Shown in pieces: positions 771-13,129 of a stretch of 37,959 bases of DNA (position 1 is the stretch's first letter; each line of letters opens with the position of its first letter). Source of the stretch: a virus. Lineage: Duplodnaviria > Heunggongvirae > Uroviricota > Caudoviricetes. The stretch spans positions 1-37,959 of the IMG/VR virus record IMGVR_UViG_2541047683_000006; one strand, given 5' to 3'. A program made the translations under genes and the position numbers. The notes under the pieces are model-generated. The model did not search any database. It was given only the letters and a program-made list of their open reading frames with translations, and was not told the origin of the DNA.

Positions 771-1343
771 TCATAATTCTGTGCTGGTGGCAGGAATTAG
801 TTTCTGCCAGATAGCGGAAACATATTTTGCCTGATGACGGGCATCAGCCAGGGCGTTGTGCCGTTCGCCATCGAAAGGCATGTCCATTTTTGGGTCGAAT
901 CCGATGGAACGCCCAAGCGTAACGATCGTGCGTACATCGTGGTCATTCCAGTACGCCCACGGGCAGATTTGTCCTGCTCGCTCGTAAGCTCCACGTAAAA
1001 TTACGTTGTCGAAGGTGGCCCCGTTACCCCAGACTTTTAAATATTTTGTATTGTCTGCATGCTGATTAATGAAATGGCTCAGTTCAGAGAGTGCATCGCT
1101 GATCGACAAAGTATCATCAATACAGATTGCAGCTCGTGCTTCAGAGCTCTGTTTCAACCACCACAGGATGGTATCGCCGTCAGGTGTAGCTCCTTGCCCC
1201 ATAGCACTTTCCAGGCTAACAACCGTATAGAATTCTTGTCCGATGTCTCCGGTTTCTGGAGTGAAGAACACCGCGCCAATGGAAACGATCGGTGCATCCT
1301 TATTTTTCCCCATCGTCTCAAGGTCGATCATTAAGTTATTCAT
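771..1343 (-). CDS. DEDDh-type 3'-5' exonuclease (DnaQ-like fold)
   Basis: 190 aa; motifs IDLETMG, WGNGATFD and HNALADA are consistent with a DEDDh exonuclease; strong SD AGGAGGTG upstream; start overlaps the stop of the upstream gene. Confidence 0.65.
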   Translation of the reverse strand: MNNLMIDLETMGKNKDAPIVSIGAVFFTPETGDIGQEFYTVVSLESAMGQGATPDGDTILWWLKQSSEARAAICIDDTLSISDALSELSHFINQHADNTKYLKVWGNGATFDNVILRGAYERAGQICPWAYWNDHDVRTIVTLGRSIGFDPKMDMPFDGERHNALADARHQAKYVSAIWQKLIPATSTEL

Positions 1344-3470: not shown

Positions 3471-4295
3471 TCAGGCGGTGAAAGTACCAATAAAGGTTTC
3501 TACTTTGCTGTCTTTGAATTTCTCAACAAGCAGATCACGAAATTCGTTAGCCATTTCTTCCTGCACTGCTTCCAGCTGAATAATGCGCAGAACCAGTACA
3601 GGACGATCGCCAGTGATAATGCTGAGGCGTAATTTAAATGGACGTTCTTTCAGACCTTCAAACGGAACGCATTTAAATTCAAATGCCACTGGCATAATAT
3701 CTTTGGTCTTCGCTTCGACAGACTCCATCAGGGAGCGTTTGCCGCTGAAGTCATTATCTTCAAAATCAGCGGTCTGGTTTGCTTCAATCGTGATTTTACG
3801 GACAGCCGCAGCCGATTTTGTTGCCTGAATAGCGTCACCATTAGCATCAAAGCCCACAAGGTAGTCGGCCCAGTCTTCAATCCATTCTGCCAGTGACTTC
3901 TGGGAGTTACGCTCGCCATTAACAGACAACAGAGCAGAGAACGGTGCTGTCTTTTTCAGTTTGAGAGTGGCGGTGTTATCTGCGTGACCTGGTTCATCAA
4001 TAGTACCCAGGTTAATCACACTGACGGCTCGCATATTATCGGCATCGATAAAGCAGCGGGTGCCTTCATCTGCAAGATCTTTAGAATAACGGGTAAAGTC
4101 ATCGATGCTGGCAGTGGAAAGCGCACCACGGAAACGGAAGCGATTTAAATTAAATTTCTCCAGATCATGAATGCGGAAATTCTCAGGCAATGCCACAGCA
4201 TCGGCACCAATCTTACTGATAATTTCATTAACACCCTGAGCAGAAATAAGGGCATGGATTTGATTAATTGCGGTTGCGTCTAAGTTCTGAGACAT
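3471..4295 (-). CDS. YfdQ-like protein (DUF2303 family)
   Basis: 274 aa; overall resemblance to E. coli CPS-53 prophage YfdQ as recalled, and adjacency to YfdP-like and YfdR-like genes; SD GAGGA upstream. Confidence 0.5.
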
Positions 4296-4360: not shown

Positions 4361-4723
4361 TTAATGACCTGCTGCGCGGAGTTTTCCGTCAGGTTCACCG
4401 GCAAGAGTCAGTAATTGTCCCTGGTCTTCCTGCAGAATAGTCAGGCGGCCACCGCGATTGACATACATCGGCGTTTCGGTGGTGTCTTCTTCGGAAATTT
4501 TCCCGCGGTTAGTCGGGCGAACATATGAGAGTTTGTGTTTGATTTTCACACGGTTCTCATCAAATGGTTCGATTTCCAGGTTGAGCGAGACCTTACCTTT
4601 GGTTTTCGTGTTCATCACACCGGAAGCGACTTCACTGAGAACTGCGCCGATTTTGGTTTCAAATACGCCGCCGTCCAGCTCCCCGATAAATGCCTGCACA
4701 TCAGTACTGCGTTCGCTAGCCAT
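4361..4723 (-). CDS. YfdP-like hypothetical protein (120 aa), first gene of the PL operon
   Basis: Internal ATG (MASERSTDV...) of track ORF 4361..5041 with SD GAGGAG upstream; the track extension upstream is GC-rich and low-complexity, so treated as non-coding leader. Confidence 0.45.
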   Translation of the reverse strand: MASERSTDVQAFIGELDGGVFETKIGAVLSEVASGVMNTKTKGKVSLNLEIEPFDENRVKIKHKLSYVRPTNRGKISEEDTTETPMYVNRGGRLTILQEDQGQLLTLAGEPDGKLRAAGH

Positions 4724-4771
4724 TTTGCTGCTCCTCATCATATCGACCCTGCAAGGTCGGTTGGTTTCTCC

Positions 4772-4860
4772 ACAAAACAGAGAAGAACACCTGCGGTGGC
4801 AGCCGCCCGGATGGATTGGGTTATGAGCCCGTCGTCCGGTGATGCTCTTCTCTGTTTTGT
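4772..4860. repeat. 15-bp perfect inverted repeat (acaaaacagagaaga / tcttctctgttttgt) with a 59-nt spacer, inside the PL leader
   Basis: Seen directly at 4772-4786 and 4846-4860; a second 10-bp inverted repeat gcggtaccag/ctggtaccgc lies at 4868-4877 and 4897-4906. Confidence 0.7.
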
Positions 4861-5062
4861 AAAAAGAGCGGTACCAGCCGGAAGCAAGTGTACAAACTGG
4901 TACCGCCAGGACTACACACAGCATAAAGTTGTGGTGCCGGGTGCCTCCCGGTGCCTGGCGAAGGTTGCACACCAGGCGGGTGGGTATCCACAGAAGGTCG
5001 ACTGTCAGCCTCAACCTTAACCCGCGTGCGCTGAGCCGCATTCACCACAACTCTAAAAACAA

Positions 5063-5115
5063 ATGTAGGATATCCAACATGTGAGTGTCAAGAGTTTATG
5101 TTGGTTATCCTACAT
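5063..5115 (-). promoter_or_regulatory. PL-like leftward early promoter with two operator palindromes (OL1 5063-5080, OL2 5098-5115)
   Basis: ATGTAGGATATCCAACAT and ATGTTGGTTATCCTACAT are the same palindrome seen three times at OR; minus-strand TTGACA (plus 5086-5091) with a -10-like TACATT overlapping OL1. Confidence 0.55.
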
Positions 5116-5130
5116 AAAAAGATAGGCTCA

Positions 5131-5157
5131 TAAAAAAACCGGGGATACCCCGGTTTT
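5131..5157 (-). terminator. Intrinsic terminator downstream of the repressor gene (possibly bidirectional)
   Basis: ccgggg-ata-ccccgg stem flanked by A7 on one side and T4 on the other; lies between the cI stop (5178) and PL. Confidence 0.55.
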
Positions 5158-5177: not shown

Positions 5178-5831
5178 TCAAAAATCCATTATTACTTGTT
5201 TGACAAGACCAACTATTCTGCAGTTCTCACCGCATTCAATAGTTTTATAGTTAGGATTTAGTGGGACGAGATACCTGTTCGGCCAGTCCTCAACAAATTT
5301 TTTGAGTGTCGCTTCTTGCCCACCATTGATATGGGCAACAACGATTTTTCCGTTAATACACTCTGTATCAATAATATCTGGCTCTACGATAACGATAGAA
5401 CCTTCTGGTATCGATGGTGAGCCGAGGGGATTGGTCATTGAATCACCACGGACCCGTAGTGCAAATGCCATTTCTGATACAAGGGCGGTAGTATAAACCC
5501 ACTCTTCAGCATCTTCTTTCCTGACACCAGGCTCCGTCATTGTCCATGAACCCGCCTGAACCCACGAGATGAGGGGGACTTTTTTAACTGCGAATATTTC
5601 AGGTTTTAGATTTATCTTTGGTTCAGGCGAGCCTTTTCCGCTAACAAGCCACAGAGGATCGCATTTAAGTGCGTTGGCTAGGGCTTGAAGGTTGGCTCCA
5701 TTTGGTTGGTAGTCGTCCTTTTCCCATCCAGTAACCGTGACACGGTTCACACCAGTCAAATCAGCCAGTGCTTGTTGTGTCAGGTTCAGTTCTTTTCGCC
5801 TTTGGCGAATACGATCACTCATGTTCATCAT
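5178..5831 (-). CDS. cI: CI-like prophage repressor (XRE-type HTH plus S24 LexA-like autopeptidase domain)
   Basis: 217 aa; N-terminal HTH (LTQQALADLTGVNRVTVTGWE) and C-terminal S24 signature (RVRGDSM...K); divergent from the cro-like gene with operators between them. Confidence 0.85.
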   Translation of the reverse strand: MMNMSDRIRQRRKELNLTQQALADLTGVNRVTVTGWEKDDYQPNGANLQALANALKCDPLWLVSGKGSPEPKINLKPEIFAVKKVPLISWVQAGSWTMTEPGVRKEDAEEWVYTTALVSEMAFALRVRGDSMTNPLGSPSIPEGSIVIVEPDIIDTECINGKIVVAHINGGQEATLKKFVEDWPNRYLVPLNPNYKTIECGENCRIVGLVKQVIMDF

Positions 5832-5895
5832 GTAGGCAATCCTACCACATGCCCATGTAGGATTCTTGACATTGGTATGTTGGATATCCTACATT
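5830..5895. promoter_or_regulatory. OR region: three operator palindromes (about 5830-5845, 5855-5872, 5877-5894) with rightward PR and presumed divergent PRM
   Basis: atgtaggcaatcctac, atgtaggattcttgacat, atgttggatatcctacat; TTGACA at 5866-5871 and TACATT at 5890-5895 upstream of the cro ATG at 5927. Confidence 0.6.
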
Positions 5896-5926: not shown

Positions 5927-6124
5927 ATGCGGAAATCCGACGTGATTAATTATTTCGGCGGAGTTTGTAAAACCGCCGAAGCCCTAGGTATTAAGCATCC
6001 GTCTGTTTCAGAGTGGCCTGAGATTATTCCTGAAGGCCGAGCGTACCAGTTAGAAAAAATTACTAACGGGAAACTGAAAGTTGACGTGTCTTTATATCAA
6101 AAGACTAACAGTGCTGCGGCATAA
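5927..6124 (+). CDS. cro: Cro-like small HTH regulator
   Basis: 65-aa ORF immediately right of OR, SD GGGAGA; HTH-like segment CKTAEALGIKHPSVSEW. Confidence 0.7.
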   Translation: MRKSDVINYFGGVCKTAEALGIKHPSVSEWPEIIPEGRAYQLEKITNGKLKVDVSLYQKTNSAAA

Positions 6125-6151: not shown

Positions 6152-6736
6152 GTGGGTAAAGAACCTGAATGGAAAGTTGATAAACAACCAGCATGGCTGG
6201 TGGCAGCAATACGAAGAACGATTGCTGATTTACCTCATGGCTATGAGGAAGCAGCAGAAATTCTTGGTTTGTATAAATCTGATGATATCACCCCAGCAAA
6301 AGATCAATTGCATAACAGACTGCGTAGCGGTGGGGATCAAATTTTTCCACTTGAGTGGGCCATGGTTTTACAGGATGCCAGTGGTACCAGGCATGTAACA
6401 GATGCAATAGCCCGTCGTAGTAATGGGGTGTTTGTGCCGCTGGTGGTCATTGATGACATTGACAATGGTGACATTAATCAGCGGCTGATGGAGTCAATAG
6501 AATGGATTGGCAAGCATTCCCAGTACTTACGCAAGGCAACTGCTGATGGAGTTATTGACCAAGCTGAGCGTGAGCAAATCGAAGAGAACAGCTACCAAGT
6601 AATGGCGAAGTGGCAGGAGCATTTAACACTGTTATTTCGTGTTTTTTGTGCGCCGGAAAAGAGTAACGCCCGCGAGTGTGCAGCTCCGGGCGTCGTGGCG
6701 TCGATTGCTTCTGGTTGTGGAGAAACTAACGCATGA
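6152..6736 (+). CDS. CII-like regulatory protein (phage 186 CII / CP76-like, possibly YdaT-like)
   Basis: 194 aa, GTG start with SD GAGGA; position directly after cro and loose pattern similarity to 186 CII as recalled; family assignment uncertain. Confidence 0.35.
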
Positions 6737-10705: not shown

Positions 10706-11701
10706 GTGACCGTGAGAGCACTACTGACCCCTGAAATTGCCCCGCGTATGGGGATCGTATTGTTCAGGCCAGGTTCAGAGCTGATGCCCCTGTTTATGCA
10801 GGGGCGTGTTCTGCTGGAGCCTGAGCCGGAACGTTATTCATCTTTCGCCAGTGGTGCCGTTCCGGCGGCATCACAACCGCTGGCGGATGATCCTGCCGTT
10901 CGGGCCGTGTTCCGCAATGAGGCAGTGATCCGTCGTGCTGGTGGCGTGGAATGTCTTGAAAGCTGGTTACTTCGTGAAAAAGGCTGCCAGTGGCCTCATT
11001 CCGACTGGCACAGCGAGAACATGACCACAATGCGACACGCTCCGGGCGCAATCCGTCTGTGCTGGCACTGCGATAACCAGCTGCGCGATCAGTTCACGGA
11101 ACGGCTGGAATCAATGGCAACGGATAACTGTGCCCGCTGGGTGTTGTCTGTTGTGCGTCGGGATCTCGGTTTTGATGATAGTCACGTTGTGACAATGCCG
11201 GAACTGTGCTGGTGGCTGATTCGTAATGACCTGGCGGATGCCTTACCGGAAAGTGCAGCCCGTAAGGCACTGAGATTACCAAAGCCTGTTGTGCCGTCTG
11301 TCACCCGGGAAAGTGACCTTGTGCCTTCGGTTCCTGCCACCGGCATCATCCAGGATAAGGCAAAAAAGGTGCTGGCGCTGAAAGTGGATCCGGAGTCGCC
11401 GGAGTCTTTTATGTTACGCCCAAAACGCCGCCGCTGGGTTAATGAAAAGTACACGCGCTGGGTTAAGACACAGCCGTGTGCATGTTGTGGAAAGCCTGCT
11501 GATGATCCCCACCACCTGATAGGCCACGGTCAGGGTGGAATGGGTACAAAAGCGCATGACCTCTTTGTGTTGCCTTTGTGCAGAAAGCATCACGACGAGC
11601 TGCATGCGGATACCGTGGCATTTGAAGAGAAGTATGGCTCCCAGCTGGAGCTGATATTTCGTTTTATCGATCGTGCGCTGGCAATTGGCGTATTGGCGTA
11701 A
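10706..11701 (+). CDS. DUF968-family protein with a C-terminal Cys/His HNH-like motif
   Basis: 331 aa; C-terminal CACCGKPADDPHHLIGHGQGGMGTKAHD...CRKHHDELH; GTG start is uncertain, an alternative ATG lies 42 nt downstream. Confidence 0.45.
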   Translation: MTVRALLTPEIAPRMGIVLFRPGSELMPLFMQGRVLLEPEPERYSSFASGAVPAASQPLADDPAVRAVFRNEAVIRRAGGVECLESWLLREKGCQWPHSDWHSENMTTMRHAPGAIRLCWHCDNQLRDQFTERLESMATDNCARWVLSVVRRDLGFDDSHVVTMPELCWWLIRNDLADALPESAARKALRLPKPVVPSVTRESDLVPSVPATGIIQDKAKKVLALKVDPESPESFMLRPKRRRWVNEKYTRWVKTQPCACCGKPADDPHHLIGHGQGGMGTKAHDLFVLPLCRKHHDELHADTVAFEEKYGSQLELIFRFIDRALAIGVLA

Positions 11702-11714
11702 GTGGAGAACGAGC

Positions 11715-12467
11715 ATGAACCTTGAAGCCTTACCAAAATATTACTCCCCAAAATCTCCAAAATTGAGCGATGACGCACCGGCGACAGGCTCAGGTGGTTT
11801 AACGATTACGGATGTGATGGCTGCGCAGGGGATGGTGCAGTCGAAAGCACCGCTTGGGTTTGCCTTATTCCTGGCAAAAGTTGGTGTTCAGGATCCTCAA
11901 TTTGCGATTGAAGGTCTGCTCAATTACGCGATGGCACTGGATAACCCGACATTGAACAAATTGAGTGAAGAAACCCGGTTACAGATCATCCCTTACCTTG
12001 TGAATTTTGCCTTTGCTGATTATTCCAGGTCTGCGGCAAGTAAGGCTCGCTGTGAGCATTGTGCTGGTACTGGATTTCATAATGTATTGCGCGAAGTGGT
12101 GAAACACTCCAGAAGCGGGGAATCTGTTATCAAGGAAGAGTGGGTGAAGGAACTATGTCAGCATTGCCATGGTAAGGGAGAAGTCAGCACAGCGTGCAGA
12201 GGGTGTAAGGGTAAAGGTATTGTCCTGGATGAAAAAAGAACCCGGCTTCATGGTGTGCCTGTTTATAAGATTTGTGGGCGTTGCAATGGCAACCGGTTTA
12301 GCCGTTTACCAACCACACTGGCGCGGCATCATGTCCAGAAACTGGTACCGGACCTGACGGATTATCAGTGGTACAAAGGATATGCAGACGTTATTAATAA
12401 ACTGGTTACAAAGTGCTGGCAGGAAGAAGCGTATGCTGAATCGCAATTGAGAAAAGTGACGAGATAA
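11715..12467 (+). CDS. Late-gene antitermination protein Q-like
   Basis: 250 aa from ATG 11715 (SD GGAGAA); four CxxC pairs (CEHCAGTG, CQHCHGKG, CRGCKGKG, CGRCNGN); directly upstream of a promoter plus short terminated transcript and the lysis genes. Confidence 0.55.
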   Translation: MNLEALPKYYSPKSPKLSDDAPATGSGGLTITDVMAAQGMVQSKAPLGFALFLAKVGVQDPQFAIEGLLNYAMALDNPTLNKLSEETRLQIIPYLVNFAFADYSRSAASKARCEHCAGTGFHNVLREVVKHSRSGESVIKEEWVKELCQHCHGKGEVSTACRGCKGKGIVLDEKRTRLHGVPVYKICGRCNGNRFSRLPTTLARHHVQKLVPDLTDYQWYKGYADVINKLVTKCWQEEAYAESQLRKVTR

Positions 12468-12498
12468 ATGATTTTCGCCGAAGATGGCGACATGATTC

Positions 12499-12527
12499 TT
12501 GCATTTTTCAAAAAATTTGGTTAGGAT
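12499..12527 (+). promoter_or_regulatory. PR'-like late promoter
   Basis: TTGCAT, 17-nt spacer, TAGGAT immediately downstream of the Q-like gene. Confidence 0.45.
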
Positions 12528-12573
12528 TCTCCTGACGATGGGCTTTGTGTGTCTACCGTTGATAATCTTCAAG

Positions 12574-12596
12574 AAACCGCCACCGAGCGGTTTTTT
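12574..12596 (+). terminator. tR'-like intrinsic terminator
   Basis: aaaccgc-caccga-gcggttt stem followed by a T6 run, about 45 nt downstream of the putative late promoter. Confidence 0.5.
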
Positions 12597-12755
12597 ATTG
12601 ATGTCAATTGTGTTTTTAAGGCTCTCCTTCCTTAAAGTGTGTTGTACAAAAAACTGGCAGCCAGCTACGCTCATTTTGAAAAAGTGACACCCTTCAATGT
12701 TTCTTTTGAATGGAATTGCTACCCATAAATCTCTATCAAAAACAGGAGAGCATAT

Positions 12756-12998
12756 ATGGTGGAGCGTTGTTCTGTTTGTGAGCAGTCATTAAGTTATTCA
12801 CGAGAAGTTGAACAAGATGGCGTTGAATATAAATCTTGCCCAAAATGTTCTGCTGATGCCGGAGTGCACGTTTTTTATAAAACAATAGACTTTGGTTATA
12901 GGGATATGGGAGACGGAAGGCATATCGTTCAGTCATGGTGTCCGGCTTGTCGTTCTGGTGAAAAACCTTCTATACCACCAGCATTTAAATGTTGTTAA
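12756..12998 (+). CDS. Cys-rich small protein (zinc-ribbon-like), moron between Q and holin
   Basis: 80-aa ORF with ATG and SD CAGGAGAG; CxxC pairs CSVC, CPKC, CPAC and a C-terminal KCC; AT-rich context; followed by a strong terminator. Confidence 0.4.
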   Translation: MVERCSVCEQSLSYSREVEQDGVEYKSCPKCSADAGVHVFYKTIDFGYRDMGDGRHIVQSWCPACRSGEKPSIPPAFKCC

Positions 12999-13017
12999 CT
13001 CAATGAATTATAAAAAG

Positions 13018-13042
13018 AGGCTGCCTGTGGGCGGCCTTTTTT
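13018..13042 (+). terminator. Rho-independent terminator after the Cys-rich ORF
   Basis: aggctgcc-tgtg-ggcggcct stem (one G-U pair) followed by TTTTTT. Confidence 0.6.
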
Positions 13043-13129
13043 GTGCACTACGCAACTTTTGCGACTCAGCGCTATAACCAGCTTCTTTCCCTTCACTCGT
13101 TGCACTTCCGATAACCGGAGGTGGGAATT

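Follow-up and report, generated by a model that had tools for sequence, protein, structure and literature searches.

Two kinds of small RNA (sRNA) encoded by lambdoid prophages are the closest described relatives of the element considered here. The PasD sRNAs, with which STnc100 is treated as being of the same kind, are northern-validated, associate with Hfq and end in intrinsic terminators; PasD and STnc100 have both been detected in lysogens, and PasD adjoins a Q gene of the Pfam family that is also found in our sequence (bioRxiv 10.64898/2026.05.13.724894). For DicF, Ragunathan et al. describe a species of 190 nucleotides (nt), whose 5' end is produced by RNase III, and a 53-nt form made by RNase E, both of which end at the DicF terminator; no read-through species longer than 190 nt was detected (bioRxiv 10.1101/2023.04.14.536235). 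A third system is the put RNA of phage HK022, where putL lies directly downstream of the promoter PL (PMC9378689). Here we analyse the interval between PL and the first early-left gene (positions 4724 to 5062) of a tailed-phage DNA of 37,959 nt, IMG/VR record IMGVR_UViG_2541047683_000006, called 'the window' below when the whole stretch is meant. Transcripts from PL (early-left) begin with this interval, a non-coding leader built of conserved RNA modules. By analogy with PasD and DicF, we read it as a PL-driven sRNA precursor that would double as a transcription attenuator ahead of the early-left genes, a reading to which we assign a probability of roughly one half.

The modules, in order of transcription, are the following (bp, base pairs):

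4924-5055, minus strand: STnc100-class core, B-type, 132 nt, identified by the match to Rfam model RF02076
5055-5043 / 4936-4924, minus strand: closing helix P1 of the core, 13 bp
5042-5040, minus strand: junction AAU, with the U of the family motif GAAU at 5040
5039-5024, minus strand: hairpin P2, loop UCAGC, the sequence running GUGAAU and then GCGGC-UCAGC-GC-A-CGC
5018-5012, minus strand: 5' strand of the pseudoknot, AAGGUUG, followed by a variable region
4977-4953, minus strand: hairpin P4, whose loop holds the 3' strand of the pseudoknot, CAACCUU (4967-4961)
4951-4937, minus strand: hairpin P5, CCGGG-AGGCA-CCCGG, directly before the 3' strand of P1
4908-4923, minus strand: single-stranded linker UGCUGUGUGUAGUCCU, 16 nt, unpaired in predicted folds
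4859-4907, minus strand: intrinsic-terminator-like hairpin GGCGGUACCAG / CUGGUACCGCU with U-run CUUUUUAC (stem 4907-4867, U-run 4866-4859)
4772-4860, minus strand: three-way junction D3, lower stem 4860-4841 / 4791-4772
4839-4807, minus strand: D3a, the invariant arm of D3, CCGG-ACGACGGGCUCAUAACCCAAUCCAU-CCGG
4806-4793, minus strand: D3b, the variable arm of D3, whose length varies among relatives
4744-4759, minus strand: small GC-rich hairpin CGACCUUGCAGGGUCG, 8 nt upstream of the ribosome-binding site

The core identifies the family. The Rfam model of STnc100 (RF02076) aligns over its full length (model positions 1-206 of 206) with 5075-4859 of the minus strand, at 47.8 bits and an E-value of 1.9e-7, that is 0.8 bit above the gathering cut-off of 47 bits; the match reaches the terminator, whose hairpin forms its 3' end. 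A nearly identical copy in locus L279, with one mismatch in P5, and the copy in phage ST64B fall below the cut-off, which places the B-type at the edge of the curated family and probably explains why the leader had been left unannotated. Because the score was marginal, we reconstructed the family anew. At least 120 viral contigs contain the P5 motif, and a two-anchor pattern detects the element in at least 100 species across Enterobacterales; as collection-scan counts these are lower bounds, and many of the copies are closely related. The fold shared by at least 100 distinct copies consists of P1 (8-13 bp), GAAU, P2 (5 bp, one bulged base, loop UNNGC), the partner strand of the P4 loop, one or two variable hairpins, P4, P5 (5 bp, with a constant AGGCA loop) and the 3' strand of P1. 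All features of the family are present in the window copy: P1, GAAU, P2, pseudoknot, P5 and terminator. The combined core motif matches the window once, for 0 matches expected, and no second copy was found in the PR operon, the late leader or anywhere else in the window, even at relaxed thresholds.

The pairings covary. In P1 and P2, 95.5% of the cells are paired, double changes are seen at nine pairs, and the score was reached by 0 of 500 shuffles. P2 of the window is of the B version (GCGGC/GC-CGC versus the common CCCCC/GG-GGG), in which three pairs differ and all three are compensated; P4 shows compensatory changes relative to ST64B; and the P5 stem occurs as CCGGG/CCCGG, CCUGG/CCAGG, CCAAG/CUUGG or GGUGG/CCACC around the same AGGCA loop. 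The pseudoknot, which is absent from the printed Rfam consensus structure of STnc100 and was derived in the present analysis, gives a mean longest complementarity of 6.46 in viral contigs, against 4.63 +/- 0.10 when loops are permuted among sequences, and of 5.91 against 4.43 +/- 0.09, with 86 different pairings, in a set of one genome per species; these permutations ignore relatedness and hence overstate the significance, so that the number of different compensated sequences is the stronger argument. Double changes, from G-C to C-G and from G-C to A-U, are also present in the lower stem of D3.

The leader is also strongly structured as a single sequence, as a preliminary description of this DNA, made from its letters alone, had proposed. 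The minus-strand RNA from 5056 to 4715 folds at -153 kcal/mol, against -119 +/- 5.4 for dinucleotide shuffles (z = -6.2; none of the 100 shuffles folded as well). Taken by module, D3 stands out most (z = -7.4, -51.2 kcal/mol), followed by the core (z = -3.7) and the terminator hairpin (z = -3.1, -24 kcal/mol); the hairpin next to the ribosome-binding site was not significant against shuffles (z = -1.05). The G+C content, described beforehand as high, is 55.5% (60.6% in the core); the window as a whole has 51.4% and the early-left genes have 45.9%. Both inverted repeats of that description were recovered by an inverted-repeat scan: the perfect 10-bp repeat (4868-4877 / 4897-4906) is the terminator hairpin, and the perfect 15-bp repeat (4772-4786 / 4846-4860), which extends to 25 nt at 84% (4772-4796 / 4836-4860), is the lower stem of D3. 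A third repeat, not named there (13 nt, 92%, 4924-4936 / 5043-5055), closes the whole 5' domain.

The terminator module is conserved as a terminator. A GC-rich hairpin followed by a run of five to seven U is kept in nearly all of at least 70 distinct relatives while the sequences change. Within the family, a median of 29-33 nt separates the terminator stem from the end of the P5-GGC motif, and the window terminator, about 30 nt after P1, is in the STnc100 position. The proposal of attenuator or terminator hairpins is thus supported for the 10-bp repeat and not for the 15-bp one: the latter's arm does end in a U-run in the window (CUGUUUUGU), but this run is not conserved in the relatives LLS and Klebsiella phage Kp4866-6. 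D3 was accordingly rejected as a second terminator, its U-run being lost in several relatives, and we regard it as a conserved three-way junction. Its invariant arm has the consensus CGACGGGCUCAUWACCCAAUCCAYCCGG, and the motif CGACGGGCTCATNACCCAATCCA was found in at least 120 viral contigs, once in each and nearly always directly after the terminator U-run; this placement recurs in nearly all of the at least 70 distinct relatives, and the first genes downstream differ. Neither D3 nor the small hairpin matched any Rfam family above noise. D3 is an undescribed conserved RNA junction, with copies in L225-L228 and at least 70 distinct copies in IMG/VR. At the position of the small hairpin, ST64B, LLS and Kp4866-6 carry a hairpin of another sequence.

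The linker between core and terminator is a candidate seed and RNase E entry site. Its segment GCUGUGUGUAGUC is exact in LLS, Kp4866-6, L205, L229, L234 and L271, differs by one substitution in ST64B and F1055, has a shortened end in L239, and is kept where the flanking cassette and hairpin differ. The DicF model (RF00039) aligns end to end with 4920-4866, at 15.4 bits (E-value 0.89 in a search of 411 nt) versus a cut-off of 48 bits, so the score does not make the module a member of that family. Given this weak alignment together with the shared position and build, we call the module DicF-like in position and build, and not a DicF member. In Qin-like prophages, a stem GUUGUGG...GCUGCAAC encloses a cassette of about 135 nt, which is followed by a linker and DicF itself (76.7 bits in Rfam). 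From the start of that stem (4890) to the end of the DicF U-tail (5079), the Qin-like locus L211 measures 190 nt, the length of the published long DicF species; the corresponding distance in the window, from about 5054 to about 4861, is about 194 nt, and the P1 sequence is the same as in Qin (GUUGUGG...CCACAAC). In L205-type prophages, the window-type linker and hairpin occupy the dicF slot. With its 5' 197 nt matching the sRNA family STnc100 and a build like that of long-form DicF, the leader supports the small regulatory RNA that had been among the initial suggestions.

A single module order is found in ST64B, LLS, Kp4866-6, F1055, mEp460 and many IMG/VR contigs: the GUUGUGG...CCACAAC stem with a cassette, a single-stranded stretch, a GC-rich hairpin with U-run, D3, a small hairpin and the first gene. 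The cassette is a B-type STnc100 core in the window, L271, L251, LLS and Kp4866-6, a different RNA ('module X') in F1055, L239 and upstream of dicF in Qin, a short one in L229 and L309, and another long RNA in L234 and L265. mEp460 has a variant core in which the loop of P2 could pair with that of P5 (GCUGA / UCAGC), which hints at a possible loop-loop contact between P2 and P5 in the family. In L287 the stem holds a tRNA-like RNA with an insertion of about 55 nt (43.9 bits with the Rfam tRNA model); ARAGORN called no tRNA in the slot cassettes, L287 included. The stem thus appears as a slot for interchangeable RNA cassettes (for example L287 1077-1203, L448 2700-2830, L211 4890-5020, and also L228, L239, L229 and L234). 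All phages in which yfdP is the first gene have structured leaders of 450-800 nt.

A-type and B-type copies differ in location. Most A-type copies are found in the region that separates Q from the lysis genes; tandems are frequent, and usually each copy has its own terminator. Arrays of up to five A-type units, with periods of about 220, 253 and 484 nt, were seen in phage late regions (L023, L039, L076, L013, L022, L048, L064, L037, L073 and L078); they adjoin tRNA genes and isrI, and some of their units have no terminator. In HK639, one STnc100 copy lies among four annotated terminators in the Q-holin interval, and not at PL. B-type copies are found in early-left operons. One group, to which the window belongs, is directly behind PL; a much larger group occupies the dicF-dicB spacer of Qin-like prophages and ends 23-31 nt before the dicB ribosome-binding site. 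This dicF-dicB core (L211 5090-5225, Qin-like) occurs in 4631 of 5426 complete E. coli genomes and is unannotated in the E. coli records listed. Downstream of the element, a terminator lies about 30 nt away in at least 115 distinct copies, and a Shine-Dalgarno sequence with a start codon 23-60 nt away in at least 60; copies classed as A-type with a Shine-Dalgarno sequence and no terminator were discounted from these counts, as they are duplicates of B-type copies picked up through an upstream GTGAATT string. As to a promoter common to all members of the family, hexamers resembling a -10 box are enriched at two offsets in only about 40% of the distinct upstream sequences, partly through relatedness.

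The window itself is the DNA of a lambdoid phage of the SfV-like kind. It shares 99% identity with Escherichia phage vB_EcoM-720R4, from whose annotation the names YfdP and YfdQ are taken. The setting of the leader is as follows:

5062-5091, minus strand: promoter PL, -35 TTGACA (5091-5086), 18-nt spacer, -10 TACATT (5067-5062)
5063-5080 and 5098-5115, no strand assigned: two 18-bp operator-like palindromes that flank and overlap the PL hexamers
4361-4736, minus strand: Shine-Dalgarno sequence GAGGAG (4736-4731) and the yfdP-like first early-left gene (ATG 4723-4721, 120 amino acids)
3471-4295, minus strand: yfdQ (DUF2303), the next gene after the yfdP-like one
5178-5831, minus strand: cI-type repressor gene
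5927-6124, plus strand: P22-Cro-type gene
6152-6736, plus strand: cII-like gene
11673-12467: Q-like gene (Pfam PF03589, E-value 7e-54)

The PL hexamers match the consensus at 10 of 12 positions, with a consensus -35 box, and identical hexamers are present in the divergent promoter PR (5866-5895, plus strand). Transcription from PL is predicted to start at about 5054-5055, some 332 nt (from 5054) before the first start codon, and 5056 is where the match to SfV-type phages that have a different immunity region stops. In the inverted-repeat scan, the two operator-like palindromes are 94% complementary to each other and each is also palindromic in itself. The yfdP-like gene (4361-4723) had no Pfam match, and no N-family match was found among the 20 window open reading frames (ORFs) scanned, nine of them in the early-left operon; in agreement with the preliminary description, then, the first gene is not N-like, and a Q-like late antiterminator is present. 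No N-family gene was found either in mEp460, Stx2a_1447, ST64B or LLS, all of which have the yfdP-first layout. A lambda-type N/nut system would have an N-family protein as the first PL gene and a boxA-boxB site in the leader; here that gene is yfdP-like. By eye, a string CGCUCUUUUUACAA over the terminator tail resembles boxA (GCUCUUUAACAA), without a boxB partner; also by eye, GGCGGUAC, at the 5' base of the terminator hairpin, resembles the RfaH ops core GGCGGUAG, bases 1-7 of ops matching and base 8 differing.

Other observations concern the surroundings. Directly after the cI stop codon, a perfect 10-bp hairpin at 5135-5157 stands between A-runs and U-runs (AAAACCGGGG...CCCCGGUUUU), and is likely a bidirectional terminator insulating PL from cI transcription. 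NC-SV, a lambdoid prophage that like e14 integrates into icd, is reported to encode an sRNA, svsR (C0293-like), at its cI 3' end (PMC12803456, a paper of 2026). The same position in the window is about 5178-5260; svsR / C0293 is a different element from the leader. The far end of the early-left operon (ORFs 462-761 and 771-1343, minus strand) encodes a PrtN-like protein of the pyocin activator family and a protein with an Rv2179c-like 3'-5' exoribonuclease domain. The interval of about 650 nt between Q and the lysis genes (12467-13121) has no STnc100 copy, unlike that of many relatives; pattern scans found no promoter-like site on its plus strand and a single plus-strand terminator-like site, at 12475-12490.

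How could such a leader work? When the repressor leaves the operators, RNA polymerase would start at about 5054 and first produce the 132-nt pseudoknotted STnc100-class domain, with its closing helix at the 5' end of the transcript, followed by the 16-nt conserved single-stranded stretch. At the GC-rich hairpin and U-run, a large share of the transcripts, perhaps most, would end at 4860-4866, giving an RNA of about 194 nt. If, as for DicF, RNase E cuts in the linker, a 3' fragment of about 55-65 nt would be released, consisting of seed, terminator hairpin and U-tail, the usual form of an Hfq-dependent base-pairing sRNA; pairing with a target would then run through UGCUGUGUGUAGUC. Polymerases that read through would make D3 and the small hairpin, with which, after removal of the sRNA, the message of yfdP, yfdQ and the following genes would begin as a structured RNA. 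The sequence comparisons show that the leader is non-coding, and they show its fold with covariation, its family relationships, the order of its modules and the conservation of the terminator as such. Expression and processing are modelled on DicF and PasD; we infer the start site, the efficiency of termination, cleavage by RNase E, dependence on Hfq, possible targets, and what the core and D3 do.

Several points weigh against an sRNA precursor with attenuator function. Start site, 3' end and processing are all predictions. The Rfam score is 0.8 bit over the cut-off, with the L279 and ST64B copies below it, and the similarity to DicF (15.4 versus 48 bits) is mainly one of position and architecture, while terminator hairpins may converge. 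A pseudoknotted domain of 132 nt with invariant loops is more than a simple base-pairing sRNA needs, so that a further role of the core is probable. STnc100 and PasD are detected in lysogens, where PL is repressed. At least 60 B-type copies lie 23-60 nt before a start codon with no terminator, and so resemble a cis-acting element of a 5' untranslated region more than an sRNA gene. Finally, the terminator stands ahead of all early-left genes, and no N was found that would explain their expression. Four other explanations are considered: a structural scaffold, an antiterminator RNA, a sensor and a protein-coding gene.

The leader may be a purely cis-acting scaffold for processing and stability, giving messages structured, nuclease-resistant ends and keeping Rho off a long untranslated leader, with no target in trans. 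Since P1 lies at the predicted +1, the transcript would have almost no single-stranded 5' end, and 5'-terminal stem-loops protect E. coli mRNAs from RNase E. That the U-run is followed at once by D3 in nearly all the distinct relatives (at least 70), the hairpin before the ribosome-binding site, and the long structured leaders of all yfdP-first phages fit this view as well. However, invariant loops and a covarying pseudoknot are needless for simple protection, and the U-run after the hairpin is conserved; moreover, a strongly conserved single-stranded linker is the mark of a seed or recognition site, and the homologous families are experimentally trans-acting sRNAs. We consider the scaffold unlikely.

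In the second scenario, the core is a processive antiterminator of the put type, which binds the elongating polymerase, carries it past the 4907-4859 hairpin and later terminators, and replaces N/nut. The core lies directly after PL, as HK022 putL does, with an intrinsic terminator immediately behind it; an N-family gene was found neither here nor in mEp460, Stx2a_1447, ST64B or LLS; the core loops are invariant across Enterobacterales, as expected for binding to a conserved host machine; and A-type copies occur in late leaders with up to four terminators. The preliminary description had mentioned cis-acting RNA of the HK022 put type, and the position after PL agrees with this, but size, architecture and sequence do not. 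With putL and putR, the core shares only chance words of 6-7 nt; it is a 132-nt RNA with five helices and a pseudoknot, compared with about 70 nt and two stem-loops; and the second copy, in the PR operon, was not found. The put RNAs of HK022 promote read-through in cis, in dependence on the beta' zinc-binding domain of the polymerase. In sister phages, the P1 slot before the same terminator holds unrelated cassettes, which are unlikely all to be polymerase binders. PasD RNAs accumulate as terminated sRNAs, the DicF read-through species was undetected, and HK639, which is reported to have put RNAs of its own (cited in PMC9378689), carries STnc100 in its late leader only. Kinship with putL/putR is rejected, as there is no sequence similarity and all testable put features fail except position; antitermination of this type is, in our view, distinctly unlikely. 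We would give just as little credence to a broader version, in which the STnc100-class core of N-less phages is more than the 5' part of an sRNA, namely a cis-acting device that, by binding RNA polymerase or another conserved host factor, allows transcripts from PL to extend beyond the DicF-like terminator. If it were true, about half of E. coli genomes would carry an antiterminator RNA of phages that forms a class of its own beside put, with an unrelated structure.

Third, the core may be the aptamer of a sensor for a metabolite or for a host or phage factor, its occupancy setting termination, or translation where a start codon follows. It has the build of an aptamer (closing helix, multi-helix junction, pseudoknot, invariant loops and variable peripheral hairpins), and its two downstream contexts, a terminator or a Shine-Dalgarno sequence with start codon, are as in riboswitch classes. 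The window offers an alternative pairing between CGCCAGG, the 3' arm of P4, and CCUGGCG, which flanks the terminator on its 5' side; over the family the complementarity between a core and its own terminator is -11.9 kcal/mol, against -11.1 +/- 0.23 for permuted pairs, a small excess that is confounded by relatedness. The window pairing is, however, not kept in ST64B. A wide range of genes without a common function follows the element (dicB, yfdP, lysis genes and unknowns), tandem arrays of three to five copies are unusual for riboswitches, and the slot exchanges its cassette for unrelated RNAs. We hold a sensor to be quite improbable.

Last, an ORF of 226 amino acids (4361-5041, minus strand) crosses the leader in frame with the yfdP-like gene. 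Relative to ST64B (80% identity), substitutions number 22, 21 and 23 at codon positions 1 to 3, and the nine indels of the leader measure 1, 10, 10, 1, 1, 3, 1, 2 and 1 nt, eight of them not multiples of three; given this pattern, the leader is non-coding and a coding ORF across it is rejected, as the absence of a convincing ORF in the preliminary description had implied. That this ORF, or those annotated in public records over homologous DNA (hypothetical proteins in RefSeq and GenBank, YmfH in prophage e14 of K-12), should be real in spite of even substitutions and eight frame-breaking indels has practically no chance, as the ATG at 5041 has no Shine-Dalgarno sequence and is only about 14 nt from the predicted start, the translated extension is rich in Arg, Cys and His and unlike a protein, the RNA pairings covary on the minus strand with G-U pairs included, and long open frames are expected by chance in G+C-rich DNA. 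Overall, the interpretation offered by the preliminary description is partly supported.

The leader is present in 2780 of 5426 complete E. coli genomes, K-12 prophage e14 included, and its copies are annotated as protein (ymfH or 'hypothetical protein') in e14 and elsewhere. In e14 of E. coli K-12 C600 (L327 2501-2821), ymfH overlies a leader copy of 89.5% identity, and xisE-intE follow shortly downstream. Probably, then, ymfH is an ORF called in error where the product is RNA; nothing on ymfH as an RNA was found in the literature searched. Reading the leader as RNA links STnc100/PasD with DicF, so far studied separately, through a common build of a stem-enclosed structured cassette, a single-stranded stretch and a terminator. 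A whole N-less group of lambdoid phages (SfV, ST64B, mEp460 and several Stx2 phages) carries a conserved terminator before all early-left genes. Mutagenesis and structure determination can be directed at the covarying pseudoknot and the invariant loops of the core, and at the arm of D3 that does not vary. If the short RNA is a true regulator, induction of the prophage would release it in a burst, and host gene expression could be redirected by it in the early lytic phase.

Compared with known systems, the leader has in common with HK022 put that a structured RNA is encoded in cis immediately after PL of an N-less lambdoid phage, with terminators downstream; it differs in showing no resemblance of sequence or structure, in being twice the size, in being present as a single copy, and in the interchangeable content of its slot in relatives. 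In the case of lambda 6S and StxS, a terminator close to the promoter likewise causes the first part of a long phage operon to accumulate as an abundant short transcript. Sy et al. reportedly found in 2020 that the short PR' transcript of Stx phages (StxS), ended at tR', acts as an sRNA. Those leaders belong to late operons and are read through by Q, whereas the window leader is early-left, and we know of no antiterminator for it.

DicF is closer. Both lie in the early-left operon of a lambdoid prophage under a cI/Cro-type switch (dicBF in Qin), and both have a GUUGUGG... stem with a structured cassette of about 135 nt, a single-stranded stretch, a hairpin beginning with UGGCGGUA-CAGUUU and a U-tail, with a total of 190 nt in DicF and about 194 nt in the window; in Qin, the B-type STnc100 core is the next module, between dicF and dicB. 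The cassette inside the stem is another RNA, however, the 5' end in the window would be that of the primary transcript and not an RNase III cut, and the single-stranded 'seed' is UGCUGUGUGUAGUCCU in the window but UUUCUGGUGACGUUU in DicF, so that the targets would differ. From the STnc100 and PasD RNAs of Salmonella and pathogenic E. coli, which typically lie between Q and the lysis genes and often in tandem beside tRNA genes, the window copy differs in beginning at the +1 of an operator-controlled PL with coding genes after it, and from STnc100 also in its B version of P2 and in a score at the cut-off. With both it shares the lambdoid prophage context and the whole sequence of elements: the closing helix, GAAU, P2 with its UNNGC loop, P4, the P5 hairpin CCGGG-AGGCA-CCCGG, a spacer and an intrinsic terminator.

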